Shown here one piece after another: positions 20,423 to 39,191 of a DNA stretch of 64,000 nt. Numbering within the stretch: the first letter of the stretch is position 1; the number at the start of each line of letters is the position of its first letter. A program made the translations under genes and the position numbers. The notes beneath the pieces are model-generated. The model did no database searches. It saw only the letters and a program-made list of their open reading frames with translations, and was not told the origin of the DNA. This DNA is from Candidatus Babelota bacterium (GTDB lineage: Bacteria; Babelota; Babeliae; Babelales; JACPOV01): NCBI GenBank assembly GCA_016191325.1, contig JACPOV010000008.1:718351-782350 (forward strand), read 5' to 3'.

Positions 20423-21715
20423 TTAATCGAGCTCTTCAAGTTTAGATTGAGCACCAAATAATTTTGCTTCTGTTTTAAGAAGCTCGCTAATGCGGCGTGC
20501 ATTATCATAGCCATAGGGGGCAAACGCATGCTCTTCTTTATCAGCAAATTCACGAAATTTCTCAGCATATTGCACACGCGTCATCTGATCTCTCTTTTTA
20601 TCATCATTCTCTACAGCTTTCTTTAAACAAAATTGCATACATTTATAGATTAGAGGAATACTTATGATACCAGCGAGACCTATTACTTTAAAAACATTAT
20701 CTTCATCCTTTTTATTACTCAATTCGATATAACCCCTCGCAAACAAAGCACTTGGGATCCCTGCTGCAATACCAGTTAACAACAAGGCCTCTGGTTGGGA
20801 AACCAGTCTAAGATCGGTCTGGGCACTCTTGGCATTCTTGCTATTAAGAGATGCAAAATGCTGGTCTGCTTGATATTCCTGGTGCCTCCATAAAGACAAT
20901 CTATCTGCTTCTGGTATGGTTTTTCCTCCTATTTCCCACGTATACTGAAATGAATGTAACTTTTTTGCATGCCCTAATTCATGCATCAATAATGCTATTT
21001 GCTTATCTGTGTTCATTAGTGCACAACGCGGAGTAAAAACAAGACGTACCCCATCTTTTCTTGAACGGAAATCACAGTAGCCGATCCAAGAACTATTGGG
21101 AAAGTCATTGCTAACCTCAACATAAATTTTCATTTTTTTAAGATCATCATCGCAAGAGACAATTTCTTCTAATTTCTCTCGCAATGGTTTAAAAAGCGAT
21201 ATTTTAACTAATTTTGAATAAATAATCCCAGGTTCTTTACAAAATTTTTCTTTTTTTTCCTGGCAATATTTAGAAACCGCAGAATATAATTCGCCAGGGG
21301 CATTAAATTTATCACCAAAATCTTTTTGCTGTATTTCATCAAAAATTCGCTCAGTGCGCTTATCCAAAAATTTGTGCACAAACTTCGTCACCGTCTGATT
21401 ATTTGCATGAATAGCGCGAACAAAACTTTCTTGAGGATTTACTTTCTGGGTGACGCGCTCTCGATAAGAGCGAAAATAACTATCGATCGTAGTTGGGTTA
21501 TCTTTTTGCCAAACTGTGTTCAATAATGCTTTTTCATTAAATTTTTCTGCAATACCAATTCCCAAAGCTGCTGGCTGAGGCGTGTTAGCTTGCCTAGAAA
21601 TTGTTTGTTTATTGGCGAATTTTTGCAAACCTTGAAAATCGGCATACGATGCCGAGGCAAAATTGTATAAAAAAAGGCAAATAATTATTTTCATTTTATT
21701 CATAAAATATCCCAT
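20423..21715 (-). CDS. secreted HExxH zinc metallopeptidase-like protein (M48-like) with C-terminal TM segments
   Basis: Signal peptide (MKIIICLFLYNFASASYA), LLMHELGHAKK followed by EYQADQHF (HExxH ... ExxAD pattern), and two hydrophobic helices near the C-terminus. Start ambiguous among 21715, 21703 and 21694. Confidence 0.6.
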   Translation of the reverse strand: MGYFMNKMKIIICLFLYNFASASYADFQGLQKFANKQTISRQANTPQPAALGIGIAEKFNEKALLNTVWQKDNPTTIDSYFRSYRERVTQKVNPQESFVRAIHANNQTVTKFVHKFLDKRTERIFDEIQQKDFGDKFNAPGELYSAVSKYCQEKKEKFCKEPGIIYSKLVKISLFKPLREKLEEIVSCDDDLKKMKIYVEVSNDFPNSSWIGYCDFRSRKDGVRLVFTPRCALMNTDKQIALLMHELGHAKKLHSFQYTWEIGGKTIPEADRLSLWRHQEYQADQHFASLNSKNAKSAQTDLRLVSQPEALLLTGIAAGIPSALFARGYIELSNKKDEDNVFKVIGLAGIISIPLIYKCMQFCLKKAVENDDKKRDQMTRVQYAEKFREFADKEEHAFAPYGYDNARRISELLKTEAKLFGAQSKLEELD

Positions 21716-21820
21716 AATTGATTACTTTATTATAGTATCAAATTTGATATTTTTTTCAAGTTGAATAAAATTGGCCAAATTTATAGCCATTTTAACAGAT
21801 ATACATCAGTTTGAATTGAC

Positions 21821-21875
21821 GTGATGGTTTTTTGGTGATTCGGGAAGAGCGTATTTAACAAAAGATTTTTATTAA
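21821..21875 (+). pseudogene. relic of the last ~18 codons of a cysteine-synthase-family gene (diverged direct repeat of 20367-20420)
   Basis: GTGATGGTTTTTTGGTGATTCGGGAAGAGCGTATTTAACAAAAGATTTTTATTAA encodes VMVF(+1 T)GDSGRAYLTKDFY*. The intact gene end is VMIFGDSGRAYLTKDFY*. There are 7 substitutions, 6 of them synonymous third positions, plus one extra T. Confidence 0.75.
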
Positions 21876-22456
21876 TAATACCCGAGACATTTCGTAAAGT
21901 TCCTCACGATGCCCGCGCTAACAGCACCAGTTACAACCAAAATAGTAAGATGGGCAATATAAGCTCTCGAAAAAGGATCATATACGCGCGGCCATTCGCT
22001 CAAACGGTGAAGCTGTGTCCCTTGTTTTTCGTACAAGGCATATGACCTAATATCCGCTTGCCTGATAAGGTCTTTTTTGCCTAAAATGAACGATTCTCCA
22101 ATGTGCTCAACGTCTTCTTTTTTTCCAAAATGGTGAGCAAAAGAATTCGCTTCATAATAAGAATGATATTTTAATAAATTTCTGGGGTTACGCGTCTCAA
22201 CGCGAACAACTTTTTTTCTTTCCTCAAATTGATTTATCGGAATCTGCGAAAATGTTTCTTGATCATCAAATTCATCCGATTTAATAAAAATGCGCACTTC
22301 GCCTGTTTGAGCCGGTTCGTCTTTTGGATCCATTTCAATGCGTGCAGGATGAGCATACTTTTGCTCAACACTCAATACCCAGCGCGGTAAGCAAGCATGT
22401 GTAATAAGTGTTAGATTAAAAAGTATCACCGAAAAAATAGTTGTTATAAAATTCAT
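21872..22456 (-). CDS. secreted/tail-anchored hypothetical protein, tandem paralog A
   Basis: Signal-like N-terminus and C-terminal TM (HLTILVVTGAVSAGIV). IRSYALYEKQGTQLHRL matches ISSYAVFKRSGTHLKKI of the next gene. Confidence 0.6.
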   Translation of the reverse strand: MNFITTIFSVILFNLTLITHACLPRWVLSVEQKYAHPARIEMDPKDEPAQTGEVRIFIKSDEFDDQETFSQIPINQFEERKKVVRVETRNPRNLLKYHSYYEANSFAHHFGKKEDVEHIGESFILGKKDLIRQADIRSYALYEKQGTQLHRLSEWPRVYDPFSRAYIAHLTILVVTGAVSAGIVRNFTKCLGYY

Positions 22457-22968
22457 TTACAGCTTCCGAATACATAAGAATCAACACAACATAAAGCACA
22501 TGCTACAACTATTTGCGCTCCAAAAAAATGATACGGCTTACTATCTATCAATGGGTGATAACTATTTTGTGAATTATTAGACTCCAATTTTCTTTCATAA
22601 ATTTTTTTTAAATGAGTTCCACTTCTCTTGAACACTGCATAAGAAGAGATATTCAACTGATAATTTGCATCAAGACGCTCCGATGGTTTCTTTTTGTACC
22701 ATTGATCAAAAAAAGGCACCGAGTCATAAAAGGATACTAATTTTTTACCATTCTTATCCAAACAAATGGTTTGAACGATTTTCTCACTTCTTCTGTTAGA
22801 TCGTCCGCTGATATCAATGATTTCACCCATCGAAATGTTCCGAATCCGGTCTTGATATACTATGTCTTTGTAATTCTTACTAAATAAAATCTTAATTTTG
22901 TTGGGGTGCTCTTCTGCATTGATGGAAAAAACCATAAGTAATTGCAAAATAAAAAAACGTTTGATCAT
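22453..22968 (-). CDS. secreted/tail-anchored hypothetical protein, tandem paralog B
   Basis: Signal peptide MIKRFFILQLLMVFSINA and a C-terminal hydrophobic Cys-rich helix. 4-nt overlap with the downstream paralog. Confidence 0.6.
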   Translation of the reverse strand: MIKRFFILQLLMVFSINAEEHPNKIKILFSKNYKDIVYQDRIRNISMGEIIDISGRSNRRSEKIVQTICLDKNGKKLVSFYDSVPFFDQWYKKKPSERLDANYQLNISSYAVFKRSGTHLKKIYERKLESNNSQNSYHPLIDSKPYHFFGAQIVVACALCCVDSYVFGSCK

Positions 22969-23074
22969 AGAGCCTGCAAGTAAAAATTAAATTTTTCTCG
23001 CACTAAAGATACCAATTTTTTGCAAATAATAAAGGCTTGCGCAAAACCGACAACCTTTAAAAATAATTATTCTT

Positions 23075-25447
23075 TTAAAAAGGTTTTTTTCTTTTTTGGT
23101 ATTCGCGCCAGATAATTGTAGCGCCGATGAGAGCAATAAAGAATATTAGCATGAAGATTCCGCTCGTTAAGGAATGCGAAGCTGCATAATTCTTTTTTTC
23201 TTCAGGTTGCATTCGTTTGCCAGAAACATTCCCTTTCGTTCCTTCTTCCATTGGCCCTTGATAGGGGTCGATTTCTCGATAGGGAGAGAACGGAGCAGTT
23301 GGCATGCCTTCTTTTGCATAACCAAATGGCTGAGCTAAAGGTTTTTGTTCTTGCGTTTGGCTCGCTTTTTCTGATGGCGTAGCGGGAATTGAATAACCTC
23401 CGTAAGGAAGTTGATTTCGCTCGCCCGTATCAAAGAAACCGGGTATGGACGGATAAGCTGCGGAATTGCGAGTTACGGATGAATTTCTATAACGATCTCC
23501 GGGCGCAAACGATTGATTGAACTCTCTTATTGGCAAAGTTCCTGTAGACTCGTATGGGGCATTGTCAGTTGATCTCGCGCGATTGCTTGATGAAGGTATT
23601 ATTCTTGATCTGCCCGGCTGTATTCGTGACCAAGGAGTAAATTCAATCTTGTCGTACGCTTTTTTAATTTCTGGTAATTTACCCTCGAACTGTTTTTTTT
23701 CAGAACTAGGCAATTTTGAATCTTTTTCAATACGCAGCATTTCATCTTTCTTATCAACTATTTTTTCCGGAACTGCTGATATTTCTGGAGAAAGAATTAT
23801 CTGCTCTTTTTCGCTTATTGCTTTCTTTGCATCTTTTTGACTATCAGCTTTTTTAATTTTCTTGAAAGCATTTTCATCATCTCCTGCAACATCACCAATT
23901 CTTGGGCGCTTAATTGTCGGTGGTAAATTCCCGCCTGCTACAATCGCTTGTTGCAACTGAAGAGTTCCTGGTTTTAGTTCTATCAAAGCTTGTTGGCGTG
24001 CAACATCTTGAAAAACCCCTTCTTTGAGAGCGGCAGATTCTTTAATGATACTCTCTTGCTCTTCGGGCGGTAAATTTTCGCCTGAGACGATCGCTTGTTG
24101 CAGCTCAAGAGTTCCTGGTTTTAATTCTATCAAAGCCTTCTCGCGCGCAATTTCTTGAGTGGCCCCTTCTTTTAGAGCCGCGGATTCTTTAACAATACTA
24201 TTTTGCTCTTCTTTGTTTTCTTGCGATTTTGGCATGCTAATTTCTAACTCTTTGCCTATTTGCTCAATCGATTGCGCAGGAACTCGAGGTTCCACTTTTT
24301 CTACTGCCTTGCTAACTGGCTCTTGAATATTCTTTTCTATAATTGTTTCCGGTTCCGGCGCGATTTGAACGATTGGTTCAGCTACGAACGGAATAGGGGG
24401 AATGATTTGTGCAGGAGAAACTACCGGTATAATGTAGTTTGATTGGCCAAAGTTCACCGGTTCGGTAAGCGCACGATATTTTTGCTCACTAATTTGCGGG
24501 CGCTGTTGTTCACGCTCTGCATTAATCGCAAGAGCATTAAGTCGCTCAACCGTTGTGCCAAATAAATTTCTTAGTATTGCGTCATCCGGAAGTTGAATAA
24601 CATCTTGCCTTGAGTTGTAACCGCTTAAACGGGCCATATCAACTACTAATTTTTTAATCAATTGCTGTACCTGAGGAATTGCTAGCCCTTTCAATGAGCC
24701 AATGCGCATTGCAATTTGAGCGACAGATTGAGATCCATATCCTTCAAACGGAATCATTTCTTTTGATTCTTCTTGCGGCAATTGCTCTAAAACGTGCTGC
24801 GCAATCGTATCAAAACCCGCAAGTATCAATTCAATTTTCCTTTGTTCTATTTGCGGCCGGGTAAGTGCTCGTTGCTCAAAACGTTGCTGAGCAATCTCTT
24901 GCCCTTCTATTTCGCTTAGTGCAGGAACAAATTCTTCTTGCTCCAGCTCCGGTTCTATAAGAGAAAGCTCTTGGTACATCGGATATTCAATTGCCGGATA
25001 TTCTTTTTTTACCGACTCAGTTTTTTTAATCGTTGCCTGTTTTTCAGCTTGGCTTTTTATTTTTTGTGCCATTTGAGCGGGAGTTAATATTGTTCTTTGA
25101 GAAGGCGCTGGCTCAATCTCTTGCTCTACGGGTTTTTCTAGAGGTGCAGAATAGACAGGAAAAAGGGGTTTAGTAAATTGGAATGACTTAATTGTTTGGG
25201 TAAATCTTTGAAGATAGGTAGGCTGAGCTGATTTTTCTGGCTCAATCGCTGGAGTTATGCTTGCTCCTGAAAATGCAGGCGTCACAGTTTTCGTTTGCAC
25301 CGGCCTAATTGTAGGGGATTGCTTCGTTTTGCGTATTGGCTGTGCAGGCTTTTTAAACTGTATACGGCTAGAAGCAGTACCAAATATTCCTGCAAAAGCT
25401 TCTACGCTTAAAAGTGATAATAAACTAAGGAATAATAATTTTTTCAT
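23075..25447 (-). CDS. large secreted, P/E/Q-rich low-complexity protein with C-terminal membrane anchor
   Basis: Start moved to the ATG at 25447 (AGAGG upstream). Signal peptide MKKLLFLSLLSLLSVEAFA, long disorder-like sequence, a 49-aa tandem repeat, and C-terminal TM SGIFMLIFFIALIGATIIW followed by REYQKRKKPF. Confidence 0.7.
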   Translation of the reverse strand: MKKLLFLSLLSLLSVEAFAGIFGTASSRIQFKKPAQPIRKTKQSPTIRPVQTKTVTPAFSGASITPAIEPEKSAQPTYLQRFTQTIKSFQFTKPLFPVYSAPLEKPVEQEIEPAPSQRTILTPAQMAQKIKSQAEKQATIKKTESVKKEYPAIEYPMYQELSLIEPELEQEEFVPALSEIEGQEIAQQRFEQRALTRPQIEQRKIELILAGFDTIAQHVLEQLPQEESKEMIPFEGYGSQSVAQIAMRIGSLKGLAIPQVQQLIKKLVVDMARLSGYNSRQDVIQLPDDAILRNLFGTTVERLNALAINAEREQQRPQISEQKYRALTEPVNFGQSNYIIPVVSPAQIIPPIPFVAEPIVQIAPEPETIIEKNIQEPVSKAVEKVEPRVPAQSIEQIGKELEISMPKSQENKEEQNSIVKESAALKEGATQEIAREKALIELKPGTLELQQAIVSGENLPPEEQESIIKESAALKEGVFQDVARQQALIELKPGTLQLQQAIVAGGNLPPTIKRPRIGDVAGDDENAFKKIKKADSQKDAKKAISEKEQIILSPEISAVPEKIVDKKDEMLRIEKDSKLPSSEKKQFEGKLPEIKKAYDKIEFTPWSRIQPGRSRIIPSSSNRARSTDNAPYESTGTLPIREFNQSFAPGDRYRNSSVTRNSAAYPSIPGFFDTGERNQLPYGGYSIPATPSEKASQTQEQKPLAQPFGYAKEGMPTAPFSPYREIDPYQGPMEEGTKGNVSGKRMQPEEKKNYAASHSLTSGIFMLIFFIALIGATIIWREYQKRKKPF
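23918..24211 (-). repeat. 2 x 147-bp in-frame tandem repeat inside the 790-aa gene
   Basis: GGTAAATT anchors at 23922 and 24069 give a 147-nt period. Encoded units are ESIIKESAALKEGVFQDVARQQALIELKPGTLQLQQAIVAGGNLPP and NSIVKESAALKEGATQEIAREKALIELKPGTLELQQAIVSGENLPP. Confidence 0.8.
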
Positions 25448-25536
25448 CTTTTCCAACCTCTTTTAATTCAACTATTAGTATAACTGATTTTGCAAAATTT
25501 TCAATCAGTAATTAATTAAGGTGCGGAAAAGTGATA

Positions 25537-25562
25537 TTTTTTTATAGCGCCCTATAAAAAAA
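25537..25562. terminator. AT-rich palindromic hairpin 5 nt downstream of the 25568 gene
   Basis: TTTTTTTATAG CGCC CTATAAAAAAA: a perfect inverted repeat with a 4-nt centre. Confidence 0.45.
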
Positions 25563-25567
25563 GCTAA

Positions 25568-25918
25568 TTACTCGCCTATTTGATTAGAGCAAGAAAACAA
25601 AGAGAAAAGGCCTAAAGAATGAGTTCTATTTATTTGCTGCGAGCGTACTTTGCTTATTTCTTGCGGTTTCGGTTCAAAATGGGATTTCTTTCTGCGGTTT
25701 CGCAAACCGGTTTCTTCATTCTCTTCTGTTTTTTCCATAATCATAGCTTGCGGCTGCTCAGAATCATATGAACGGCAGGATGGAAGAACTTGTTCATTTT
25801 GAGGTTGTTCTATAACTTTTTTAACCTCAACTTTAACAACGATTGGCTTTGGTAGCGGCAAATATTGCGTTGCTTCACTATTTAAAAATATTAATACAGC
25901 GACATACTGCAATTTCAT
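25568..25918 (-). CDS. small secreted protein, hypothetical
   Basis: Start moved to the ATG at 25918 (AAGGAAGAG SD 4-5 nt upstream). Signal-like MKLQYVAVLIFLNSEA, then basic/Glu-rich sequence. Confidence 0.5.
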   Translation of the reverse strand: MKLQYVAVLIFLNSEATQYLPLPKPIVVKVEVKKVIEQPQNEQVLPSCRSYDSEQPQAMIMEKTEENEETGLRNRRKKSHFEPKPQEISKVRSQQINRTHSLGLFSLFSCSNQIGE

Positions 25919-26124
25919 AACTCTTCCTTTGTTCCAAGAGTAGAAAATATGAGCTTCGTTAACTATCCTACCTGTTTTACGGCTGAGCGCAAACCAAGAA
26001 AAACATTCACCAAATAATTTTTGGTTCAAAAAATTAGAAAAAACGTTCTCATTTTAGATTATTTTTAGCATTCTCATCTATTTTCTATACACTAAAGTGA
26101 AATTTTATTTTAGGGAGACAACTA

Positions 26125-27405
26125 ATGCACGGCCTCAAAAAACATATCCTCTCAATAATAGTAGTGACGAAATTTTACTGTATATCGGCAATGGAACCGC
26201 AACCTGCACCAGAAATTGTTTCCTATGCTCAAGAATTCGCGCAGGATGAGATTCGCCCAGAGCTTCTTGAGCAATTGCTTGCTACGTGCCCCAAACTGAA
26301 GCAATTGGTTTTCCGTTTACAAAATCCTCTCCGCTATGGCAGAACAATCCCTACTAAACTTTTGCTCGTTGGCCCTCCTGGAGTTGGCAAAACTACTATT
26401 GCAAAAGGAATTGCTTCACTCATTAATCGCCCCTATATATTTCTTCGAGCATCGTTACTCACAAATGAATATAAAAATTCTGGGCCGCAAAATTTAGCGC
26501 GCGAAATAATACCTATTTTACAAAGCGGGCAACCTTATGTAATCATCGTGGATGAACTGCATGCGCTCACTGAAAATTATAAAAAAGACCACAATGCAGA
26601 TCCAGGAACTGCAGAAGCATTATGGTCGATTCTCGATGAATGCGCCAAAAATCCACAAGTTCTTTTTATTGGTACCACCAATGATGCTGTAAAACTTCCA
26701 GAACCGCTCAAAACAAGATTTGCAAACGGGATCATTGAAATACCACTGCCAAATCTTGAACAGCGAACTAATATTATTAAATATTATTTACACAACATCT
26801 CTTACACATTCGACAGATCATATTTTACAACTCTGGCAAAACAAACGAATCAACTTTCGGGTCGCAATCTTGAGCAACTAGTTTCTGATGCGATTACGTA
26901 CGCTTTAGATCGAGAAGAAATTCCGATGATTAGAAAAAAAGATTTTGAGCGCGCTTTGAAGGATATGAATGAAAATCAAAGTTCATTGGCATTGTTGGGC
27001 TGGGAAAAACATAAGCAATTTTTAAAAGATAACGCCACAACTATCGCCACGATTATTGGTATAGGTGTAAGCCTTGTTGGGCTCGCAATGCAATACTGGT
27101 CGATGCAGCGACAAATTTCCCTTCAGTTAGTTGCGCAAAACGCGCAAATAGACCAAAATAAAAAATTTCTCGATCATCAAGTAAAAGTGCAAAATGAGCA
27201 ATTTACTATCGAACAGGGAAACAAAGAAAAAAAAGCAAACCAGTCTGCGTTCATACAAAAAACTGGTGCCGGCGCGGGTATAGTTACAGGAGCATTTACA
27301 TTAGCTGCATCATTCCCACCCCTTTGGCCAGTAGCTTACGTAATTGGTGGTAGTGGAGCATTGATGGCTGCTGATGCATTTGATCAGAATTGGAGCAAGA
27401 TGTGA
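26125..27405 (+). CDS. membrane-anchored classical-clade AAA+ ATPase
   Basis: N-terminal hydrophobic anchor (ILSIIVVTKFYCISA), Walker A LLLVGPPGVGKTT, Walker B YVIIVDELH, sensor-1 region FIGTTN, PEPLKTRF. C-terminal TM TIATIIGIGVSLVGLAMQYW and Gly-rich helix GAGAGIVTGAFTLAASF. GGGAGA SD. Confidence 0.8.
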   Translation: MHGLKKHILSIIVVTKFYCISAMEPQPAPEIVSYAQEFAQDEIRPELLEQLLATCPKLKQLVFRLQNPLRYGRTIPTKLLLVGPPGVGKTTIAKGIASLINRPYIFLRASLLTNEYKNSGPQNLAREIIPILQSGQPYVIIVDELHALTENYKKDHNADPGTAEALWSILDECAKNPQVLFIGTTNDAVKLPEPLKTRFANGIIEIPLPNLEQRTNIIKYYLHNISYTFDRSYFTTLAKQTNQLSGRNLEQLVSDAITYALDREEIPMIRKKDFERALKDMNENQSSLALLGWEKHKQFLKDNATTIATIIGIGVSLVGLAMQYWSMQRQISLQLVAQNAQIDQNKKFLDHQVKVQNEQFTIEQGNKEKKANQSAFIQKTGAGAGIVTGAFTLAASFPPLWPVAYVIGGSGALMAADAFDQNWSKM

Positions 27406-30368
27406 TTTTTTCCAAAGCACGAAAAAAACTCTCTAAGAAAATCTTATTCGCTGCATTCGTTTCATTCAGCTTTTCAACATTGCAATCTATGGCAATACCG
27501 TGGCAAACCATTGCACCGACTCTTGCAAATTTAAGCTACGGATGCGGAGCTTTAGTTAATAAACTCTTAAACACACAGCGCCATAGCATTCCATCTCCAG
27601 CTCAACAAATACCAATTACTCGCGCGCCTCTAATTTTAAGCGTTAGGCAATCCTCGATCGCCCCAATTAGATCATTATGCATAAAATCGCCAATCGAAAC
27701 CTACAGCAGAGCGCTTCATTGTAAATTGCAACAGAATTTACCTACAGCGCTTCTCAAAAACCCCGCTTCGACCGCAACGCCAAAACTACGATTGGGTCAC
27801 CTGCCCTCAGCTCGTGGCAAAAGCGAAATTTATAAAACGAAAACTGCATCATCGCTCCTAAAATTGCCTCAAGTCAGGCCAGATTTGCAGTATGTAAAAC
27901 CTAAAAGCGCTTGGGAATCTTTTATCGATAAATTAACAATAACAGTCGTTCCACATGATATTGATTATCGCACATATGGCGCAGTCTCCGATCTGCATCG
28001 AGCTACCGTCGAACAGCAATCCCTCATCAACCAATACCAGCAAAATGGCATGTTCCATGTGCTAGAACAGAACGTTGCAAAATTTCAATCAATCTTATTG
28101 GATCTCTCGCGATCAGATCCTCAAGGCGTTATCGCGCGCAATAAATTTTCTGAATTGCAAGCACCTTTGCCACTCGCCCAGCATTATCTTAATGATTTTA
28201 AAACATGCATAAAAATGTTTGCTTTTGATAAAGCAGATACCATAAAACAAAACCTTTCGAAAGTTGATTCATTTTATATAGCAGCTCATTGTCAATCATT
28301 TATACAACGAAGCTTCGGCGCTCAAGCAGCAGCCGATTTTGTAAAAATGGGATGCGAACAAAAAATTCCTGGGTACCTTGAACTCAGCGGGCAAGTAAAA
28401 TATGGAAATATTTTTTCTCGAGCGCGTCGATGGTTTGCAGGATGTAAAACTGGATTCCGTTCAAATGAATTTAATCCGCATCATATTCTTGAAAATAGCT
28501 TTAATCAAAAGATAACGCACGTACGAACATTATGCGAAAACCAAAAATTCCATTTAGCTCATGCTTATATTCAGCAATCGTCAGGGGAAAGCAAGCAAAG
28601 TTTGCTGGGTGTTTATGGGGAATATTTTAAACAAAGCTATAATCAACTTGGTATCGAGCGCTGTTATGAAAATGATCCTTTTTTTGCGCAAATTTCATCC
28701 CAACTTAAATATAGTAGCGTACCCAGCGCAGGCCTCAATGATGTTTTTAAATCACGCCACGATATGTTCAATGCCATTAAGCAAACATGCGCTATCCCTA
28801 ACAACGCTGACGCGTTCAGCAATTCTTTAATGTGGCATCTAGTTGATCAATGCGGAAATAACGCAACTCCAAAGCAGATGGTGAGCGATTTAGCTGTTCT
28901 GTGCAAAGATAGCGCAGCCAAAACAATTTCTGGAGCGTATCATCATTTTTTTGATGGCAACGGGATCTTTAAGCTCTTAAATTATGATAAATCTAACTTT
29001 GCGCATCTTTCTTTTCATGAATCGATTCACCATGAACGCAATACTCACACACGAATCTTCTTAAATGATCTTATACAGATTCCGTGTACAACCAAGCAAC
29101 AGTTAGAGGCTTTTTCAAGCGCCCTAAATCACCTAAACCAATCATGCAAAAATCCTTCCCTAGCTACGCAACATATGACGTTCGCGCAAGACATTGCCAA
29201 TGCGCTCTCAAATCCTGATTACGACCAAAAAATTATTTCCTGCGGCGATTTTAGTAAATATGATATGCGCCTTCTTAAACTTGGATCCGAAATAATTACC
29301 GCTAAGAATAATACGAATGTTCAGCTTGCTGACATGCAAGAGCTGAATGCTGCATTGGCGCAACTAAACGATGCTGGAATCGCACGCTTGAATGGAGATT
29401 ATTATCTTTCAGAACACCTAACCAACAAAACCTTAGGATCGCTCGATATTGAATCAAGCAGTTTTTGGCAGCAAGAAAAAACGAGCTTTATAAAACCGAT
29501 ATCCGCTGATTTAAAAACATCATTTTTCAATATTCAATCTCCCAAAACTCAAGAAGCTGCCCCTTCTAAAAATAGTTTTGCAAACGGTTTTGCGGCCGCC
29601 GTGGGAGCTCGAGCATTGCAGCAGGCTTTTTCTGGAAATTCTTTCGCGCCAGCACCTTCAGCTAATTATTCACAGACGCAAACAGATGCCGCTAGTGCGT
29701 GCCCGCAATGTGCAAACGATGCAGACGCAATTCATGAGTATTTTGACTATTTAAATCAAGGCGGCCAACCTGTTGCCATTTCTGGCGGACAGGCTGATGC
29801 TGCTCAAAAGGCAAAAGAAGACGATTGCAATGAAGCGCCGACAAAATTATCACTTTTAGAACAAATAGAATTAGCAAGAAAAGCAAATGATTATTTCCGG
29901 GAACAAATTGCGAAATATGAAGCTGAAATCGTTGAGGCGATAAAGAAAAAGCTCAAAGAAAATAATTTAAATTATGAACCAACGATTCACGTTAAAGATA
30001 TTAATATGAAACACATCATGTTTACAGAATCGAGAGGCAAAAACCCAGTCGGATTACATTCAAAACGCTGGAATCCTGAACGAATAGTTACGGCAAGCGT
30101 CCGCCCTTGCAAATTCAATACAAGCCATGGGAAAGTTCAGCTCAATTGCATCACTAAACCTTCAACCTTTTTCCCCGATAGCTGGAATGAATTCATGATT
30201 GTTGATAAAATTTTTGAAGCATTAAAGAATATTATTAACGTAAATACAATAAGCAGTAAATTAATAATAAAAGGAATTACGCAAGAACAAATCTATATTG
30301 AATTACATCTTGAAAGTGGAGGTTTAATTTCAACGGCCTATCCATCATTTAAGGATTTATGCATTTAG
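27390..30368 (+). CDS. large secreted protein with C-terminal EndoU-like RNase (polymorphic-toxin type) domain
   Basis: Starts at TTG 27390 or GTG 27402, the latter overlapping the AAA stop as GTGA. Signal peptide KKILFAAFVSFSFSTLQSMA. The last ~128 aa (nt 29982-30365) carry KHIMFTE, VGLHSKRW, KPSTFFPDSWNEFMIVDKIFEALKN and LISTAYP. These parallel the EndoU His/His/Lys motifs and the bacterial EndoU hallmarks. Confidence 0.65.
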   Translation: MEQDVIFSKARKKLSKKILFAAFVSFSFSTLQSMAIPWQTIAPTLANLSYGCGALVNKLLNTQRHSIPSPAQQIPITRAPLILSVRQSSIAPIRSLCIKSPIETYSRALHCKLQQNLPTALLKNPASTATPKLRLGHLPSARGKSEIYKTKTASSLLKLPQVRPDLQYVKPKSAWESFIDKLTITVVPHDIDYRTYGAVSDLHRATVEQQSLINQYQQNGMFHVLEQNVAKFQSILLDLSRSDPQGVIARNKFSELQAPLPLAQHYLNDFKTCIKMFAFDKADTIKQNLSKVDSFYIAAHCQSFIQRSFGAQAAADFVKMGCEQKIPGYLELSGQVKYGNIFSRARRWFAGCKTGFRSNEFNPHHILENSFNQKITHVRTLCENQKFHLAHAYIQQSSGESKQSLLGVYGEYFKQSYNQLGIERCYENDPFFAQISSQLKYSSVPSAGLNDVFKSRHDMFNAIKQTCAIPNNADAFSNSLMWHLVDQCGNNATPKQMVSDLAVLCKDSAAKTISGAYHHFFDGNGIFKLLNYDKSNFAHLSFHESIHHERNTHTRIFLNDLIQIPCTTKQQLEAFSSALNHLNQSCKNPSLATQHMTFAQDIANALSNPDYDQKIISCGDFSKYDMRLLKLGSEIITAKNNTNVQLADMQELNAALAQLNDAGIARLNGDYYLSEHLTNKTLGSLDIESSSFWQQEKTSFIKPISADLKTSFFNIQSPKTQEAAPSKNSFANGFAAAVGARALQQAFSGNSFAPAPSANYSQTQTDAASACPQCANDADAIHEYFDYLNQGGQPVAISGGQADAAQKAKEDDCNEAPTKLSLLEQIELARKANDYFREQIAKYEAEIVEAIKKKLKENNLNYEPTIHVKDINMKHIMFTESRGKNPVGLHSKRWNPERIVTASVRPCKFNTSHGKVQLNCITKPSTFFPDSWNEFMIVDKIFEALKNIINVNTISSKLIIKGITQEQIYIELHLESGGLISTAYPSFKDLCI

Positions 30369-30757
30369 TAAAAATAAAACTTACCCCTTATTATCATATT
30401 GCATACGCGACGTCTGAGCCATTAAAGCTTCTGGGCTTTTTCTTAGAAGACTTTGGATCTGAAATTGGAATTGAGATTTTACGCTCAATTGTCATTGATA
30501 AATTACAAGACTGTACGTCGGGCAATAAAACATCACTATATACATTAAAAAATGGAAATTTGTGTATTACTATATTATTTCCAGACAAGAAAGATCCTGT
30601 ACGGTTAGAAATAACACCTGAAACGTTGCTTCAGGTTACAAAATTATATTTGGAAGCAGAAAAAAAACGACCAGCCGAAATTATTATTAAATTGGATCAT
30701 TCAATGGAAAATCCAACGATAGAAACTATACTATATTGTCCTCTTAATAAGGCCTAA
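30359..30757 (+). CDS. putative cognate immunity protein (132 aa, cytoplasmic)
   Basis: The ATG overlaps the toxin ORF end by 10 nt. No signal peptide. Small acidic protein. The assignment rests on position only. Confidence 0.4.
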   Translation: MHLVKIKLTPYYHIAYATSEPLKLLGFFLEDFGSEIGIEILRSIVIDKLQDCTSGNKTSLYTLKNGNLCITILFPDKKDPVRLEITPETLLQVTKLYLEAEKKRPAEIIIKLDHSMENPTIETILYCPLNKA

Positions 30758-30760
30758 AAT

Positions 30761-31201
30761 ATGAAATATTACGCACTGCTCAGTATTCTGTTATTTTTTT
30801 CCGCAGATGAGGCACGCTGTTCTAATGATTCAAATAAAGCACATTCTAACGATACCGTTTCTTTTCTAACTTCCAAAAATTGCTGCGCTGCTCTTTTAGG
30901 ATCGATGGCATTGGCATACTGCTATTACCTTTATAAATCAATACTATCACCAAAGCCACAAAAAAAATTAGCTCAAGAAACCGCAGATTCGCGTTTATAC
31001 AAGAAAAAGATCGAGGAGCAACAGCTGAAGCGCTTAAAAATAATTTTGCCAATGCTTTGCGTAATGTGGATTTTAAACTCGATTATTTTTAGTTACAATC
31101 CTTATTACAATCCAATCTATATTCCCCCAACCCATCTATATCAATATAGATACCCATATCAGTATTCATACTCATATCCATATATTTGGACATTCTACTG
31201 A
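30761..31201 (+). CDS. small membrane protein with Tyr/Pro-rich C-terminal tail, hypothetical
   Basis: Signal-like N-terminus and two TM segments. The tail is YNPYYNPIYIPPTHLYQYRYPYQYSYSYPYIWTFY. Confidence 0.5.
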   Translation: MKYYALLSILLFFSADEARCSNDSNKAHSNDTVSFLTSKNCCAALLGSMALAYCYYLYKSILSPKPQKKLAQETADSRLYKKKIEEQQLKRLKIILPMLCVMWILNSIIFSYNPYYNPIYIPPTHLYQYRYPYQYSYSYPYIWTFY

Positions 31202-31320
31202 GGCGCTAAGAATTTCATCTCGAAGTTATTTTATTTAAGGAATTTTGAGAAAGCAAACAGCTCTTTTTTTTACACTTTTTGATCGCTCTAACCCGTAATC
31301 ATAAATTCAAGGAAATTATT

Positions 31321-31776
31321 ATGAAATTAAAATCTCTAGGACTATTTTTCATCATGTTGATCTTTTTTAAAGGCATGAATGCGGAGCGTGTGTATTTCTA
31401 TCATGATTTCCATGAGCCGGTACGCGCAAGCGTAACAAAATCGATTGTTGCTAGCATTGGAGGAATTCTATTGCTCTCATTGGGATATAAACTGGAACAG
31501 AAACTCGAACAAACTGCCCGCGCGACTATTCCAGATTATAATAGACTCTTGGCTGAGCTTAAAAACAATGTCGAGTATATGAATAAAAAATACGGATTCT
31601 GGACACCAAGTCTCACCCGCTACTACGTTCCTGATATGCCCCAGTTTTATGAGATTGCAGCAAGCTCGCCAGAAACTGCCGCAGCGCTGAAAAAGCTTTA
31701 CTACCAAAGCGGGTGCTCATATGTTGCAGGCAGCGTTTTATTAATATTCGGGATATTTGGGTTATTAGGTGACTAA
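31321..31776 (+). CDS. small membrane protein, hypothetical
   Basis: Start moved to the ATG at 31321 (AAGGA SD). Signal peptide MKLKSLGLFFIMLIFFKGMNA, an internal TM and a C-terminal TM (VAGSVLLIFGIFGLLG). Confidence 0.5.
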   Translation: MKLKSLGLFFIMLIFFKGMNAERVYFYHDFHEPVRASVTKSIVASIGGILLLSLGYKLEQKLEQTARATIPDYNRLLAELKNNVEYMNKKYGFWTPSLTRYYVPDMPQFYEIAASSPETAAALKKLYYQSGCSYVAGSVLLIFGIFGLLGD

Positions 31777-31790
31777 ATATTAGTCAGGGC

Positions 31791-31830
31791 AAAAAAAACC
31801 CCTATCCAGACAGAACGTCGTGGACAGGGG
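31791..31830 (-). terminator. rho-independent terminator for the minus-strand ferredoxin/ligase/glycosyltransferase operon
   Basis: CCCCTATCCA (31799-31808) pairs with TGGACAGGGG (31821-31830) at 9/10. It is preceded on the plus strand by A8, which gives a T8 run after the hairpin on the minus strand. Confidence 0.65.
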
Positions 31831-31984: not shown

Positions 31985-33100
31985 CTATTTTTTCCCAGAA
32001 AGTCTTTCATAAAGCTCCCGGTAGGAATCTGCCATTCGGTCAAATCTAAATTCATTCGCTATTGTAGCCATCCCCTCTTTCCCGAGAGCGGCCGCAAATG
32101 GGCTATCGGTCATTATAGCGCATAAATTATCATAAAAAATAGGGCCGTTATTTGCGGGCAATAAAAGCCCATTTTTTTTATGCTGAATGACATCGTGCTC
32201 AAGCTCGGCATTGGTAACCACACAGGGAATTCCGATACTCATCGCCTCTAAAAGTGCCATTGAAATCCCCTCTTTTACAGAAGATTGAACGAAGCAATCA
32301 AAAATAGGATAATAGCCGATCGCATTCTTCCCAACGATAAAAATAACCGCGTCTTTTATATCCAATTTCTCCGCCAGTGAACGCAAATAGGCCTCCTGGG
32401 GCCCGCCGCCAACCAAAACTAAGCGGGTTGAGGGATAATTCTTATGAATTTTTGCAAAAACTTCGATTAAGAATGAGTAATTTTTAAGTGGCACGAAACG
32501 GCCAACCGAGCCAAACACAAAATTATCTTCAGTAAGGCCTAAACTCTCTCTAGTTATAAGATTTTTTTCACTCTTGCTGCGTATTCGATCGGCATCAATG
32601 CCATTTTTAATAATGTGAACGCGTTGCGCTGGCATAAAGCGATAATCGTTCATGGTGCGGCAAATCCCCTCTGAAACAGCGATAATCTCATCTGCCAACC
32701 AAAGGGAAAGCGAATCGATCGCATTCCGCACGAAACCGTTTTGATCGTGATTATTATGAAGCGCACAAATGACGGGAATACCTTTCAGTTTCCCTACTAT
32801 TCGGCTGGCCACATTTGCCGCCCAAAGTGATGCGTGAATACAACTCGGTTTTTCTGAATCGATTGCTCGATAAAGCGCAATCCAAAAAAACGGATCGAAT
32901 AGACAAAAATAGCCTTTAACGTGATAGGTTTTTATGCCAAGTTCATTAATGCGCGCGACAAAAGGGCCTTCATGAAAATAAACCACTGCTTGCTGAATGT
33001 TTTTTTCTTGAAGCCGCTCAGTCAGATCATAAAGCAAACTCTCTGCGCCGCCCATTTTAAGGCTTGAAATGATATGAATTACTTTAACTGCGCTCCCCAT
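31985..33100 (-). CDS. glycosyltransferase, GT4-like
   Basis: KVIHIISSLKMGGAESLLYDL N-terminus and EGISMALLEAMSIGIPCV C-terminal motif. 371 aa. Confidence 0.8.
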   Translation of the reverse strand: MGSAVKVIHIISSLKMGGAESLLYDLTERLQEKNIQQAVVYFHEGPFVARINELGIKTYHVKGYFCLFDPFFWIALYRAIDSEKPSCIHASLWAANVASRIVGKLKGIPVICALHNNHDQNGFVRNAIDSLSLWLADEIIAVSEGICRTMNDYRFMPAQRVHIIKNGIDADRIRSKSEKNLITRESLGLTEDNFVFGSVGRFVPLKNYSFLIEVFAKIHKNYPSTRLVLVGGGPQEAYLRSLAEKLDIKDAVIFIVGKNAIGYYPIFDCFVQSSVKEGISMALLEAMSIGIPCVVTNAELEHDVIQHKKNGLLLPANNGPIFYDNLCAIMTDSPFAAALGKEGMATIANEFRFDRMADSYRELYERLSGKK

Positions 33101-35064: not shown

Positions 35065-35760
35065 GTGAGAAAGTTTTTCTTATTCGTTTTGTGCAGCGCA
35101 TTTTTTCAAACGAACACAATGGAGCTAACTAAAAAAACGGCAGCCCCAATCATTTTTAATGAACTTGCATGGCAACTTATTTTCCGCACGATTATTGATA
35201 CAACTTATGAACAAGATTCGGGAAAAGATAAATGCACTGTCAAAAATGAGATGCGCAACATAGCGCTTTGCTGCACATCCTTAAACAAAATAGTTAAGAA
35301 TCTAGGGTCTGACGATTCGTTCAATAACTATTTTATTTTGCGACGGGCCCCAAACATAAAATTCAAGAATTCCAGGCTCAATGACCTTATATCCAAGCAA
35401 ATGCTAGCTGCGGCCCATCTTGGAACACCTTCCGCTTTAAAAATTTTGGAAAAGCAACTTCAAGAAGGAACCCTAACATCGATCAAACTCGTTTTGGATG
35501 CGAAATTTAAATCGCGACAGCACCTCGTGCCTTGGTTTTTTGCTTGCAGCAATACATGTGGGGGTGAGTATGAAACAACGGTCTCCATCGCGGAAGCGCT
35601 AGCGGACGTTTTGAAAAACTTTCCCAAGACAACTCAATTATTTTGCCACAACGTTTTGAAGGAACGACAGAAGCAAACCCCATCATTTGCAAAGACCCAA
35701 AGCGTTTCCTCTGAATTGGATAAATTGGCCGCAGCGTACGACGAAAAGGAAGAATCATGA
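35065..35760 (+). CDS. hypothetical protein with N-terminal signal-like segment and a possible F-box-like motif
   Basis: GTG start with GAGGA SD. IIFNELAWQLIFRTII ... MRNIALCCTSLNKIV loosely fits the F-box pattern LPxE(L/I)xxxI(F/L) ... VC(K/S)xW. ATGA overlap with tmk. Confidence 0.45.
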   Translation: MRKFFLFVLCSAFFQTNTMELTKKTAAPIIFNELAWQLIFRTIIDTTYEQDSGKDKCTVKNEMRNIALCCTSLNKIVKNLGSDDSFNNYFILRRAPNIKFKNSRLNDLISKQMLAAAHLGTPSALKILEKQLQEGTLTSIKLVLDAKFKSRQHLVPWFFACSNTCGGEYETTVSIAEALADVLKNFPKTTQLFCHNVLKERQKQTPSFAKTQSVSSELDKLAAAYDEKEES

Positions 35761-37171: not shown

Positions 37172-38821
37172 TTACTTTTTTTCTAGCAATGCCTTCACTT
37201 CTGCTGGTAACTTTTTATATTCATCTGCGAATTCTTTATTAAGCGCATTGACGCCTGCTTCTTTTGCAATTAAGAATATAATGAGCTGCTTGAGCGAAAG
37301 CGATTTTAATTTGAGCTCATCAGATTCCCAGATAATAACCGATCCTTTGATACCACCTACGCCCTGCGCTGATGCAAGTTTTCCATTTGAGTTGAATACC
37401 ACGTTTTGCACCCCCTTCGCCTCTAGAGTTTGAAGTTTTTTGCCGGTAAGCGCATCCCAAATTGTAATTGAGTCTTGGCCGCCAACGGCTAGTTTCGTGC
37501 CATGTTCATTGAATGCGACTGAAGTTACCAGCCTCTTTTCGTTATCGTTACTTTGCAATTTGTTTCCTGTAGCAAGATCCCATACTATAAAGCCATCGTT
37601 TCCTCCCGAAGCAAGCTTTGTACCATCTGGACTAAAAGCTACAGAGTTTATGATATGTGAATGACCAGTTAATGTTTTAAGCTTATTTCCAGTTGCAAGA
37701 TCCCATATAATTACCGAAAAATCTTGCCCGCCTGAGGCTACCATTTTTCCATCCGGGCTGAATTTTACCGAGTGAGCAGAAGCTGTGTGGCCTTGCAGGG
37801 TCTGAATTTGCTTTTCTTGCATAATATCCCATATAATGACGTTGGGGCCAAACGCCTCAGCCAAGGCCAACTTTAAGCTATTGGGGCTGAATGCAATAGA
37901 TCTTGTATTAACAGGTATCGCTTTAAGTTGTTTACCGCTAGGAAAATCAAATAGAGAAAGGTCTCGGGTGATTGATCCTGCAACAAGTTTTTTGCCATCC
38001 GGACTAAACAAAACGTTTTCAGGGCGAGTCTCAACTTGGATTAATGCAAAATCTTTTTTTAGAACAAGGTCCCAAACTATGATTGTAGCTTTATTTGCCC
38101 TACGAGACCCATACGCGATTTTTCCACCATCTGGACTGAATGCTACCGAGTCAATTTCACTGAGTTCAGTTAATGATTCTGATTGACTGAATGGCAAGCC
38201 CAAAGCGCTTATAAGATTGTTCGTTACCATTTTTTGAAGATCTTGTGGAAGCAAAGCATTTATTTGGTTGAAGATTCCCTGTCTTGCATTAAGCTCCGCC
38301 AAAGCGTTCGAGGATTGCAATCGTTTTACTAGAGCGTTAACTGATGCTTTTAATAGTTTTTCAATGTCTAAATAATTGGCAGCTTGAGCTACGTATGCAA
38401 TTTCTGTGAAAGTAAAATTTTCTAATGATTTTTCTATTAACTTTGCATCATCAAGTACGCCACTGTTTGCCAATGAAAAAATAGCTTGAACTGCCCCAAG
38501 CGAGAGTTTAGGAAGGGTTATTACACTCCCTGCTTGCAGTACTGCCTGATCATCCTCCGCCATATTTTTCAACGTGACAGAGCTTGCTACTACTTTTTTT
38601 AGTAATTGATATGCCTCAGAATTTATAGCAGGCACGGTTACTTCAATATTACCAGTATCGTCTTGCACAATAAACGGAAATTGGGGGGCTGATGTCTGTT
38701 GTATCCCTGTCGCTGGCAGATATTCCTCTTCCTCCATACCGCTCGGGGGACAACTGGCGTAAGCAAGATTCGTGCAAATGAATAATATGGATATCGCTCT
38801 GAATGTATTAATTATTTTCAT
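37172..38821 (-). CDS. secreted Skp1-like (BTB/POZ fold) domain fused to a seven-blade WD40 propeller
   Basis: Start moved to the ATG at 38821 (GAGGT SD). Signal peptide MKIINTFRAISILFICTNLAYA. SVTLKNMAEDD, VITLPKLSLGAVQAIF and AQAANYLDIEKLLKASVNALVKRL parallel Skp1 SVTIKTMLED, PVPLPNVNAAILKKVI and [24 protein letters not shown]. Seven repeats of the (V/I)xFSPDGxK(L/V)ASGG ... IWD type follow. Confidence 0.7.
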   Translation of the reverse strand: MKIINTFRAISILFICTNLAYASCPPSGMEEEEYLPATGIQQTSAPQFPFIVQDDTGNIEVTVPAINSEAYQLLKKVVASSVTLKNMAEDDQAVLQAGSVITLPKLSLGAVQAIFSLANSGVLDDAKLIEKSLENFTFTEIAYVAQAANYLDIEKLLKASVNALVKRLQSSNALAELNARQGIFNQINALLPQDLQKMVTNNLISALGLPFSQSESLTELSEIDSVAFSPDGGKIAYGSRRANKATIIVWDLVLKKDFALIQVETRPENVLFSPDGKKLVAGSITRDLSLFDFPSGKQLKAIPVNTRSIAFSPNSLKLALAEAFGPNVIIWDIMQEKQIQTLQGHTASAHSVKFSPDGKMVASGGQDFSVIIWDLATGNKLKTLTGHSHIINSVAFSPDGTKLASGGNDGFIVWDLATGNKLQSNDNEKRLVTSVAFNEHGTKLAVGGQDSITIWDALTGKKLQTLEAKGVQNVVFNSNGKLASAQGVGGIKGSVIIWESDELKLKSLSLKQLIIFLIAKEAGVNALNKEFADEYKKLPAEVKALLEKK

Positions 38822-39191
38822 ATTTACCTCAGCCACCTTGCGAGAATTGAATTGGTTTACTGTATTTATCATAGAGTATATATTAAATCTTATTTGAAAA
38901 TAAATAAAAAATTTGGGCTTATAATTAATTATTTTTACATTAAGAGTAAAAATATATTTTGAGAATATTATTTTATAAAATATGCCTGAATAGGCTGTTG
39001 AATATATGCTGGCTCACTAACTACTGTTTTTTGGGCTTGAGCTAGGAAACTTGTCTTACCTAAGCGCAACAACTATGCGCCCTGCCCACCCAATAACCTT
39101 CAAAAAATTTATTTTTTTCTAATTCCTTTTTTTTGTAAACCGGCAGCTTCTCAGGAATTTCGATGCTTACAAAAAAGTCGACCACCCATTA

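Follow-up and report, generated by a model that had tools for sequence, protein, structure and literature searches.

Polymorphic toxins of the Tox-EndoU type that are exported by Sec and type II secretion system (T2SS) routes begin with a signal peptide and a long N-terminal region that is conserved, whereas their C-terminal toxin domains can be exchanged, and a co-varying immunity gene lies directly downstream (PMC3482391). The RNase domain of these toxins is recognized by the signature H,H,[SNT],[SNT], and AAA+ partners were recorded in the same survey with the type VI secretion system (T6SS; ClpV) and with Photorhabdus virulence cassettes (PVC; CDC48-like) alone (PMC3482391). Both are cytoplasmic proteins. 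We analyzed a 64,000-nucleotide stretch of contig JACPOV010000008.1 of a Candidatus Babelota bacterium (the window; all positions are counted from its first letter). It contains a gene for an AAA+ ATPase with a predicted Sec signal peptide (26125-27405), which directly precedes and overlaps the gene for a predicted EndoU-type toxin. A signal-peptide AAA+ gene in this position, often translationally coupled to the toxin gene, distinguishes the present cassettes from the Tox-EndoU cassettes described earlier.

The gene order resembles that of cdiBAI loci, in which an export partner is followed by a large toxin with a variable C-terminus and by an immunity protein. The first gene of cdiBAI, however, encodes an Omp85-family TpsB transporter and not an AAA+ ATPase, and no two-partner secretion (TPS) domain or filamentous haemagglutinin (FHA) repeats were found in the window toxin by Pfam. 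EccA of the type VII secretion system (T7SS) is a further AAA+ partner of toxins and is cytoplasmic. An exported AAA+ unfoldase is known from Plasmodium: HSP101 of the PTEX complex carries a signal peptide, is exported by this intracellular parasite and serves outside it to carry effectors through an additional membrane. HSP101, of the Clp/Hsp100 type, has two rings and relies on a second protein, EXP2, for the pore, whereas the ATPase described here would form a single classical ring with hydrophobic segments of its own, and the two may be compared as functional analogues only. The bacterium of the window, a parasite of protists, belongs to the Dependentiae (TM6/Babeliales), a widespread, almost unstudied phylum. 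Babela massiliensis has nine AAA-Ulp1-like proteins that carry signal peptides and for which secretion into the amoeba was considered likely (PMC4378268). The ATPase of the window resembles this family as part of a Dependentiae-specific AAA expansion with predicted signal peptides. Unlike the Babela proteins, it has no Ulp1-like peptidase but a transmembrane helix, a polar helix and a Gly-rich tail, and it is linked to toxin-immunity genes, a link unreported for the Babela family (PMC4378268). No paper linking Dependentiae, AAA proteins and toxins was found in the literature searched. Sec-dependent Tox-EndoU toxin-immunity is already known and signal-peptide AAA proteins have one precedent, in Babela; the AAA-toxin operon appears to be new.

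A first-pass annotation of the window, made from the sequence alone, had taken the N-terminus of the ATPase for a hydrophobic membrane anchor. This assignment had to be abandoned. The segment that precedes MEPQ, MHGLKKH-ILSIIVVTKFYCISA, remains below transmembrane strength in a Kyte-Doolittle profile (19-residue window), and its hydrophobic core is short and broken by Lys. It fits the criteria for a Sec signal peptide, which were applied as heuristics (positive charge in the n-region, 7-15 residues in the h-region, small residues at -3/-1), with MHGLKKH as the n-region, ILSIIVVTKFYC as the h-region and ISA as the c-region, cut before M. A lipoprotein signal was ruled out, as there is no lipobox before Cys19.

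The same layout is found throughout the family. A core of the signal-peptide type is present in all of the approximately 22 family members derived from the compared loci and in 101 of 119 single-module representatives, most of the others being fragments or mis-started calls. In these 101 relatives the uncharged run at the N-terminus has a median length of 12 residues (interquartile range 10-14) and reaches 20 residues only once. In 86 of them the n-region has a net positive charge, and in 86 the 20 residues after the core are net acidic. Many relatives possess cleavage sites of the AxA type (SNAIA|Y, RVYA|N, FLFA|E, SVVA|E, QLNA|I, LVYA|E). By the signal-peptide and positive-inside rules the short core, the positive n-region and the acidic downstream flank therefore predict an exported AAA domain and not an N-out anchor with a cytoplasmic AAA domain. 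Export of the AAA domain via Sec, as predicted here, fits the published richness of the phylum in signal peptides, which reaches 44% of the coding sequences in Chromulinavorax (PMC6561590).

The remainder of the protein is dominated by a single AAA module of the classical clade, as the first-pass annotation had proposed. Pfam AAA (PF00004) matched residues 79-201 with E 1.7e-22 (80.7 bits against a cutoff of 21.2), and the match to AAA_lid_3 was weak. Walker A (GPPGVGKT, 83-90), Walker B (IIVDEL, 139-144), sensor-1 (TTN, 184-186) and an arginine finger (R198 in PEPLKTRF) could all be located, and the pore-loop Tyr lies in NEYKNSG. In an alignment of 13 family members D143, E144, T184, N186 and R198 are invariant. 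R198 is the sole Arg of the second region of homology (SRH), where the position of the first Arg is occupied by Lys or Thr (LKTRF). The AAA core was modelled confidently by AlphaFold2 (AF2), with a predicted local distance difference test (pLDDT) score of ~90. Judged from these motifs, the ATPase has an intact ATP site and a pore-loop aromatic. With the classical AAA unfoldases (p97/VAT D2, PAN/Rpt, FtsH/Yme1, Vps4) it shares Walker A and B, the sensor-1 Asn, the Arg finger, the pore-loop aromatic and the helical lid. It differs from them in the absence of an N-domain, a protease domain and a second ring, in a pore loop that reads Y-K-N-S-G in place of aromatic-hydrophobic-Gly, in the single SRH Arg and in the export signal.

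The C-terminal region agrees with the earlier description of one clear transmembrane helix and a glycine-zipper-like segment. A moderately hydrophobic helix (residues 303-325) follows the AAA lid directly, and an equivalent segment was found ~215-235 residues past Walker A in 43 relatives. The AF2 model shows a single long helix across residues 313-380 and a tail of low confidence. Among homologues the polar helix and tail vary in length and keep their composition. The tail contains GAGAGIVTG (G382xxxG386xxxG390), a glycine-zipper pattern that is less hydrophobic than the 303-325 helix and has low pLDDT.

The stop codon of the ATPase gene (TGA at 27403-27405, ...ATG TGA) overlaps GTG 27402, an in-frame codon of the 992-residue open reading frame (ORF) of the toxin, and the four-nucleotide GTGA overlap reported by the first-pass annotation was thus confirmed, with a Shine-Dalgarno sequence upstream (Table 1). 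The public call of the toxin, P0103 (959 residues), begins at ATG 27489. In loci L001, L003, L035, L036 and L037 the reading frame continues upstream of the equivalent Met and codes there for a signal peptide of the same kind (for example MNYFRKKRELSR..., MKFFKKKRVIRS... and M-IFSKARKKLSKK...). Since homologues encode a signal peptide upstream of the ATG chosen by gene callers, the early start at GTG 27402 is supported. In these five loci the toxin starts lie 16, 21, -1, -4 and 24 nucleotides, respectively, from the ATPase stop; the overlap in L036 is ATGA, again of four nucleotides, and that in L035 is TAATG. A start far downstream, which would have removed the coupling, is thus at variance with the signal peptides of homologues, which place the start at the junction. 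TTG 27390 was also considered and is a less likely start than GTG 27402, as it has no Shine-Dalgarno sequence and the N-terminal length of homologues fits GTG. For the ATPase, the position of GGGAG favours the start at 26125 over M23 (26191), the start used in public call P0001. The full 426-residue form was not on record in an exact look-up, and the public copy begins at M23. Both public calls, P0001 and P0103, thus start at an internal Met (M23 and ATG 27489) and have lost their signal peptides, and the toxin calls of L001, L003 and L037 are truncated in the same way.

The product of the second gene has the layout of a secreted polymorphic toxin. It is 30% identical to the 939-residue EndoU protein of L001 over ~890 residues (E 4e-103) and 26% identical to the shortened L003 protein. 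The match of its C-terminal domain to EndoU (PF14436) is below threshold (22.0 bits against a cutoff of 25.3). Orthologous EndoU domains that are 44-55% identical to it score 41, 33.8 and 43 bits, above the same cutoff. The catalytic residues align with those of the orthologues: His871 (KHIMF), His886 (GLHS), Lys919 and Ser921/Thr922 (KPSTFFP), numbered from GTG. The H, H, K, S/T residues of Tox-EndoU are present and the published signature is matched (PMC3482391). No significant match of the EndoU region was obtained among PDB sequences.

The putative immunity gene begins within the last codons of the toxin gene. All five EndoU domains of the subfamily (in the window, in L001 as main and orphan copies, in L004 and in L034) are followed by a member of the same ~130-residue family as the product of ORF 30359-30757, and orphan copies of that family occur in L014 and L015. 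The immunity-like protein matched no Pfam family, and its single-sequence AF2 model (pLDDT 44.7) was unusable for a fold search. In L001 (14911-16192) a standalone 124-residue EndoU ORF, in which the first catalytic His is replaced (KQVMF), lies past the main pair of toxin and immunity genes, together with two extra immunity paralogues; such orphan cassettes are a further likeness to Tox-EndoU systems. The cluster of L001 is closed by a second signal-peptide AAA gene (504 residues) on the opposite strand.

Local hidden Markov models (HMMs) defined two N-terminal families of these large proteins, bigA (window, L001, L003, L010, L012, L035, L036 and L037) and bigB (L014, L015, L019, L021, L022 and L034), and the L039 toxin is a mosaic that bridges them. 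Neither N-terminal region matches a Pfam family, which is another difference from the Tox-EndoU cassettes of the survey. The C-termini are exchanged within each family. EndoU ends are found in the window, L001, L004 and L034; L014 has a PD-(D/E)xK-like end, L015 and L039 have a third type in common, and L010 has a further type. Within bigA, the window and L001 thus differ from L010, and within bigB the EndoU end of L034 differs from the ends of L014 and L015, the latter being shared with L039. Other small proteins follow the non-EndoU ends: the partner in L039 was flagged as CdiI-like and the partner in L022 has a weak CdiI_2 match, so that CdiI-like proteins accompany two related cassettes, as in cdiBAI. 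The domain shared by L039 (2537-5803) and L015 (10951-13173), with the pattern YYEVNGFKFT..YY.KLW....W.M..NP.TK...HL.PISK, has no Pfam match and is a candidate new toxin domain. Swapped C-termini, a co-varying downstream gene and orphan copies of toxin and immunity genes together identify a polymorphic toxin system. On this comparison of loci, the large proteins behave as polymorphic toxins and the ~130-residue partner is a putative immunity protein, with toxicity and neutralization as predictions. Homology searches with the toxin, either as a single sequence or as an alignment of five sequences, returned the toxin itself alone, and a metagenome scan with the big-protein alignment gave no matches.

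The pairing of ATPase and toxin is conserved. All seven ATPases that are at least 50% identical to that of the window adjoin a bigA gene. In six cases this gene follows the ATPase gene immediately on the same strand, at a distance of -4 to +24 nucleotides; in the seventh, L004, it is convergent. The order AAA gene, gene for a large signal-peptide protein, gene for a small protein without a signal peptide was found in at least 14 distinct loci (window, L001, L003, L010, L012, L014, L015, L019, L021, L022, L028, L034, L035, L036, L037 and L039). The distance from the ATPase stop to the toxin start ranges from -20 to +44 nucleotides and includes ATGA, GTGA and TAATG overlaps. In more distant loci the cluster often ends with a further AAA gene, which is shorter than the first. 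Toxin-linked ATPases occupy at least four clades in a neighbour-joining tree of the family. Between the same pairs of genomes the ATPases are 52-59% identical and the toxins 26-30%, a pattern that would be expected of stable machinery combined with a fast-evolving toxin. Conservation of the pairing in relatives, on which the first-pass annotation had made its proposal depend, was therefore found both in the seven closest cases and in more distant loci. Gene order across these loci indicates that the ATPase and the toxin-bearing protein are a real conserved unit.

The ATPase belongs to a family of its own. Among named homologues the closest, with 59% identity, is a protein of Candidatus Dependentiae bacterium ADurb.Bin331 that NCBI annotates as FtsH. 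Scanning of one genome per species yielded 11 loci. All loci with a lineage label are from Dependentiae/Babeliales, including Vermiphilus pyriformis; two have other automatic bin labels (Pseudomonadota, Bacteriovoracaceae) and three have generic titles alone. Among 1.84 billion cluster representatives, 1,866 matched the family profile at E <= 1e-30; this number is an upper bound, since generic classical AAA proteins are also picked up by the profile. The best 150 all exceed 235 bits. As far as these searches reach, the signal-peptide AAA family is large, paralogue-rich and lineage-specific, and its labelled members are Dependentiae. In L011 (6861-10777) three signal-peptide AAA genes (377, 483 and 414 residues) stand in tandem beside a divergent bigB-like protein of 684 residues. 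Among the best 150 relatives 37 are giant proteins of 700-2,124 residues with 3-7 AAA modules (including P0105, P0106, P0111 and P0131). Several of these giants have signal-peptide-like N-termini, and the composition of some suggests other, higher-GC phyla; exported multi-AAA proteins may thus exist beyond Dependentiae.

Comparison with known AAA clades did not single out any one of them. PDB sequence matches were led by p97 D2, VAT, AFG2, Cdc48, Yme1 and PAN (phmmer E down to 5e-29). NCBIfam models ranked PAN, CdvC, FtsH, IteA and CDC48, all far under their family cutoffs. A Foldseek search with the AF2 model gave Yme1, Rpt, FtsH, PAN, p97 D1 and Vps4 at near-equal E values (~1e-15). The sequence and fold matches are consistent with a classical-clade AAA protein that forms its own family.

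The first-pass annotation had suggested a dedicated unfoldase or export helper. This is still the best functional guess. The gene linkage behind it has proved to be conserved; the mechanism and the site of action are ones that we infer from that linkage, and the family also has toxin-free members. In the reading that we favour, with a little less than even confidence, the Sec-exported ATPase is a dedicated accessory that unfolds or threads its partner toxin after export. The ATPase and the toxin would both leave the cytoplasm through Sec, and the immunity protein would remain there and shield the RNA of the producing cell. Once exported, the AAA ring, held by the C-terminal hydrophobic segments, would bind the toxin and unfold it or thread it through one more barrier, which may be the outer membrane or a membrane derived from the host. 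The ATPase would thus take the position that CdiB has in cdiBAI loci. Its action might be sited in the periplasm, at the outer membrane, at the vacuolar membrane or in the host cytosol. The source of ATP would be the host; if released, the ATPase would instead find itself in the cytosol of the host, which is rich in ATP. ATP/ADP translocases, parts of type II secretion and two copies of gspD are encoded in all TM6 genomes (PMC4776705). Because Dependentiae import host ATP via inner-membrane ATP/ADP translocases, ATP must reach the periplasm.

Several observations weigh against this reading. To our knowledge there is no periplasmic AAA+ machine, and the ATPase has just one of the two canonical SRH arginines. 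In relatives the post-AAA helix has more Lys and Arg on the AAA side (2.9 vs 1.9), a bias that, by the positive-inside argument, suits an inner-membrane tether with a periplasmic AAA domain poorly and would fit release followed by insertion into a host membrane better. The toxin gene of L004 is convergent to the ATPase gene and is not co-transcribed with it. Loci L005, L009, L013 and L016 contain members of the ATPase family without a toxin, so the family as a whole is not dedicated to toxins, and every linkage locus was found via the ATPase. A more general form of the same idea holds that signal-peptide AAA ATPases provide energy-parasitic bacteria with an ATP-driven post-Sec delivery route for polymorphic toxins and other large effectors, in which an AAA ring in the periplasm or at a host-derived membrane would use host ATP for threading its partner toxin across the outer or vacuolar membrane. 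We regard this extension as distinctly unlikely.

The strongest alternative, although an unlikely one, is that the ATPase is an independent secreted effector directed at the host, one among the many eukaryote-like proteins that Dependentiae secrete. Its C-terminal helix would lie in a host membrane and its AAA domain in the host cytosol, where it would remodel host proteins, and the adjacency to the toxin would result from clustering or co-regulation of effectors. The large number of paralogues, many of them without a toxin neighbour, would be expected in this case. The excess of Lys and Arg on the AAA side of the helix suits an AAA domain on the cytosolic face, the closest folds are of eukaryotic and archaeal type (p97, PAN, Yme1), and the Babela AAA-Ulp1 proteins have been read in the same way (PMC4378268). 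The region 20423-31776, moreover, is an island in which the encoded proteins have both a signal peptide and a transmembrane segment. Clustering of effectors, however, leaves unexplained a same-strand, overlapping or near-touching adjacency in more than 14 divergent loci, with the ATPase always first. It also does not account for the persistence of the link across two N-terminal families and several C-terminal types of toxin.

In the model put forward by the first-pass annotation an N-anchored cytoplasmic AAA protein of the Msp1/ATAD1 or Bcs1 type would extract the toxin, or feed it from the cytoplasmic side into or across the inner membrane. With these proteins the ATPase has in common a single membrane-tethered classical AAA module and a minimal N-terminal region, and it does possess an N-terminal hydrophobic segment and one classical AAA module with no N-domain. 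ATP is certainly supplied in the cytoplasm, the second helix has an excess of Lys and Arg on its AAA side, and the SRH reads xxRF without RPGR spacing, which we take to be reminiscent of the meiotic/Msp1 group. The N-terminal segments, however, are of signal-peptide length, with positive n-regions, acidic flanks and frequent AxA sites, and such features imply an N-in, C-out orientation; the N-terminus is of the cleavable type and the hydrophobic tether is C-terminal, in contrast to Msp1/ATAD1 and Bcs1. Bcs1_N was not among the 16 Pfam families that matched the window ATPase at E <= 0.01, and Msp1/ATAD1 appeared neither among the top 60 PDB sequence matches nor among the top 50 Foldseek matches. 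The affinity to Msp1/ATAD1 or Bcs1 was therefore not upheld, and we consider the model improbable.

A degenerate FtsH paralogue, that is, a housekeeping ATPase of membrane quality control that has lost its protease domain and bears no specific relation to the toxin, is very improbable. FtsH is the annotation of the 59%-identical homologue, FtsH proteins are the next-best matches after the family itself, and FtsH structures are among the top folds. Neither the M41 peptidase (PF01434) nor the FtsH extracellular domain (PF06480) was detected by Pfam, however, and there is a single N-terminal hydrophobic segment rather than two. Bit scores drop from at least 128 for family members to 79 or less for FtsH-like proteins, and the operon with the toxin is conserved. 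With no protease domain found, identity with FtsH was rejected. Equally hard to credit, and likewise rejected, is an anti-phage or abortive-infection module composed of an IetA-like AAA sensor or motor, a nuclease effector and a small regulator: a nuclease gene does adjoin the ATPase gene and PADLOC IetA models match the AAA module at 73.8 bits (NCBIfam IteA, 61 bits against a cutoff of 510), but PADLOC gave just generic IetA and TRIP13 AAA similarity, far under family cutoffs, both proteins carry export signals, and the nuclease protein has polymorphic-toxin architecture and an immunity gene, with no IetS protease present.

The block 26125-31776 contains five co-directional ORFs on the plus strand, separated by -4, -10, +3 and +77 nucleotides. 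The first-pass annotation was right about this arrangement; the terminator that it placed at the end of the block is read differently here. A hairpin is present downstream (Table 1), but on the plus strand it is preceded by an A8 run and has no T run after it; a plus-strand terminator after 31776 was ruled out, as the T run lies on the other strand. From its layout we assign the hairpin as the intrinsic terminator of the convergent minus-strand glycosyltransferase-like gene 31985-33100, and it would be bidirectional at best. A terminator scan found no plus-strand terminator after 31776; the scan accepts loops of up to 8 nucleotides and so missed this hairpin with its 12-nucleotide loop. The last two ORFs of the block belong to the cassette with less certainty, and no homologue of the 146-residue ORF was found beside other cassettes in the comparison of loci.

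Table 1. Coordinates of the ATPase-toxin cassette and adjoining features in the window.
Feature	Position	Strand	Basis or remark
Shine-Dalgarno-like GGGAG, 7 nucleotides 5' of the ATPase ATG	26113-26117	+	Sequence reading
Signal-peptide-bearing single-module classical AAA+ ATPase, 426 residues	26125-27405	+	ORF and Pfam AAA match
Predicted Sec signal peptide of the ATPase, residues 1-22, MHGLKKHILSIIVVTKFYCISA, then MEPQ after the cleavage point	26125-26190	+	Hydropathy and family-wide n/h/c layout
AAA+ module with helical lid, residues ~45-285	26257-26979	+	Pfam, PDB matches, alignment, AF2
Walker A of the ATPase	26371-26394	+	
Walker B of the ATPase	26539-26556	+	
Moderately hydrophobic helix, residues 303-325, right after the AAA lid	27031-27099	+	Mean Kyte-Doolittle value 1.96
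Q/K/E-rich helical stretch (residues 326-380) and Gly/Ala-rich tail (residues 381-420)	27100-27384	+	AF2, alignment
Shine-Dalgarno GGAG inside the 3' end of the ATPase gene, 6 nucleotides 5' of GTG 27402	27392-27395	+	Sequence reading; none before TTG 27390
Secreted polymorphic-toxin-like protein, 988 residues from GTG, with conserved helical central region and C-terminal EndoU RNase	27402-30368	+	
Signal peptide of the toxin	27402-27488	+	Conserved in L001, L003, L035, L036 and L037
EndoU-type RNase toxin domain	29952-30353	+	Weak Pfam match here; orthologues and catalytic residues
Putative cognate immunity protein, 132 residues, no signal peptide; start overlaps the toxin stop by 10 nucleotides	30359-30757	+	Family membership
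146-residue ORF with signal peptide, one transmembrane helix and Tyr/Pro-rich tail	30761-31201	+	ORF, hydropathy; cassette membership uncertain
165-residue ORF (probable start ATG 31321) with signal peptide and C-terminal transmembrane helix	31279-31776	+	ORF, hydropathy; cassette membership uncertain
Hairpin CCCCTATCCA / TGGACAGGGG, 9 of 10 pairs, 12-nucleotide loop, T8 after it on the minus strand	31791-31830 (stem-loop 31799-31830)	-	Sequence reading

BamA, a class A penicillin-binding protein, a WD40 protein and RtcB are also encoded in the window. Upstream of the ATPase gene, at 20423-25456 on the minus strand, lie four divergent ORFs of 430, 194, 171 and 793 residues, each with a signal-peptide-like N-terminus and most with a C-terminal transmembrane helix. 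The 430-residue protein has an HELGH motif and a weak match to Peptidase_M48 (E 0.009). This cluster and the block 26125-31776 together make up an 11-kb island of exported and membrane proteins. The gene for RtcB RNA ligase (39192-40700, minus strand; Pfam E 7.5e-174) is located ~9 kb from the EndoU toxin. RtcB seals 2',3'-cyclic-phosphate and 5'-OH ends, which are the products of EndoU-type RNases, and it might repair RNA damage caused by the cell's own toxin or by that of a rival. A eukaryote-like WD40 beta-propeller protein of 566 residues (37172-38872, minus strand) and a 231-residue ORF with a signal-peptide-like start, MRKFFLFVLCSAFFQ (35065-35760, plus strand), are typical of the host-interaction repertoires of Dependentiae.

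AAA+ unfoldases are thought to act only where ATP is present. The periplasm of bacteria is considered to lack ATP, which makes it paradoxical that a large AAA+ family should carry export signals. Late public gene starts (P0001, P0103) hide the signal peptides of both proteins described here. The position of such an ATPase in a toxin operon marks either ATPases that are delivered into the host or extracytoplasmic ATP-driven transport fed by host ATP. For the catalogue of polymorphic toxin systems it represents a new accessory component. If true, a post-Sec AAA route would be a bacterial counterpart of the idea developed for Plasmodium PTEX HSP101, and it would run counter to the view that bacterial machines outside the cytoplasm are unable to draw on ATP directly. 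Either outcome would give new insight into how Dependentiae attack their hosts or rivals.

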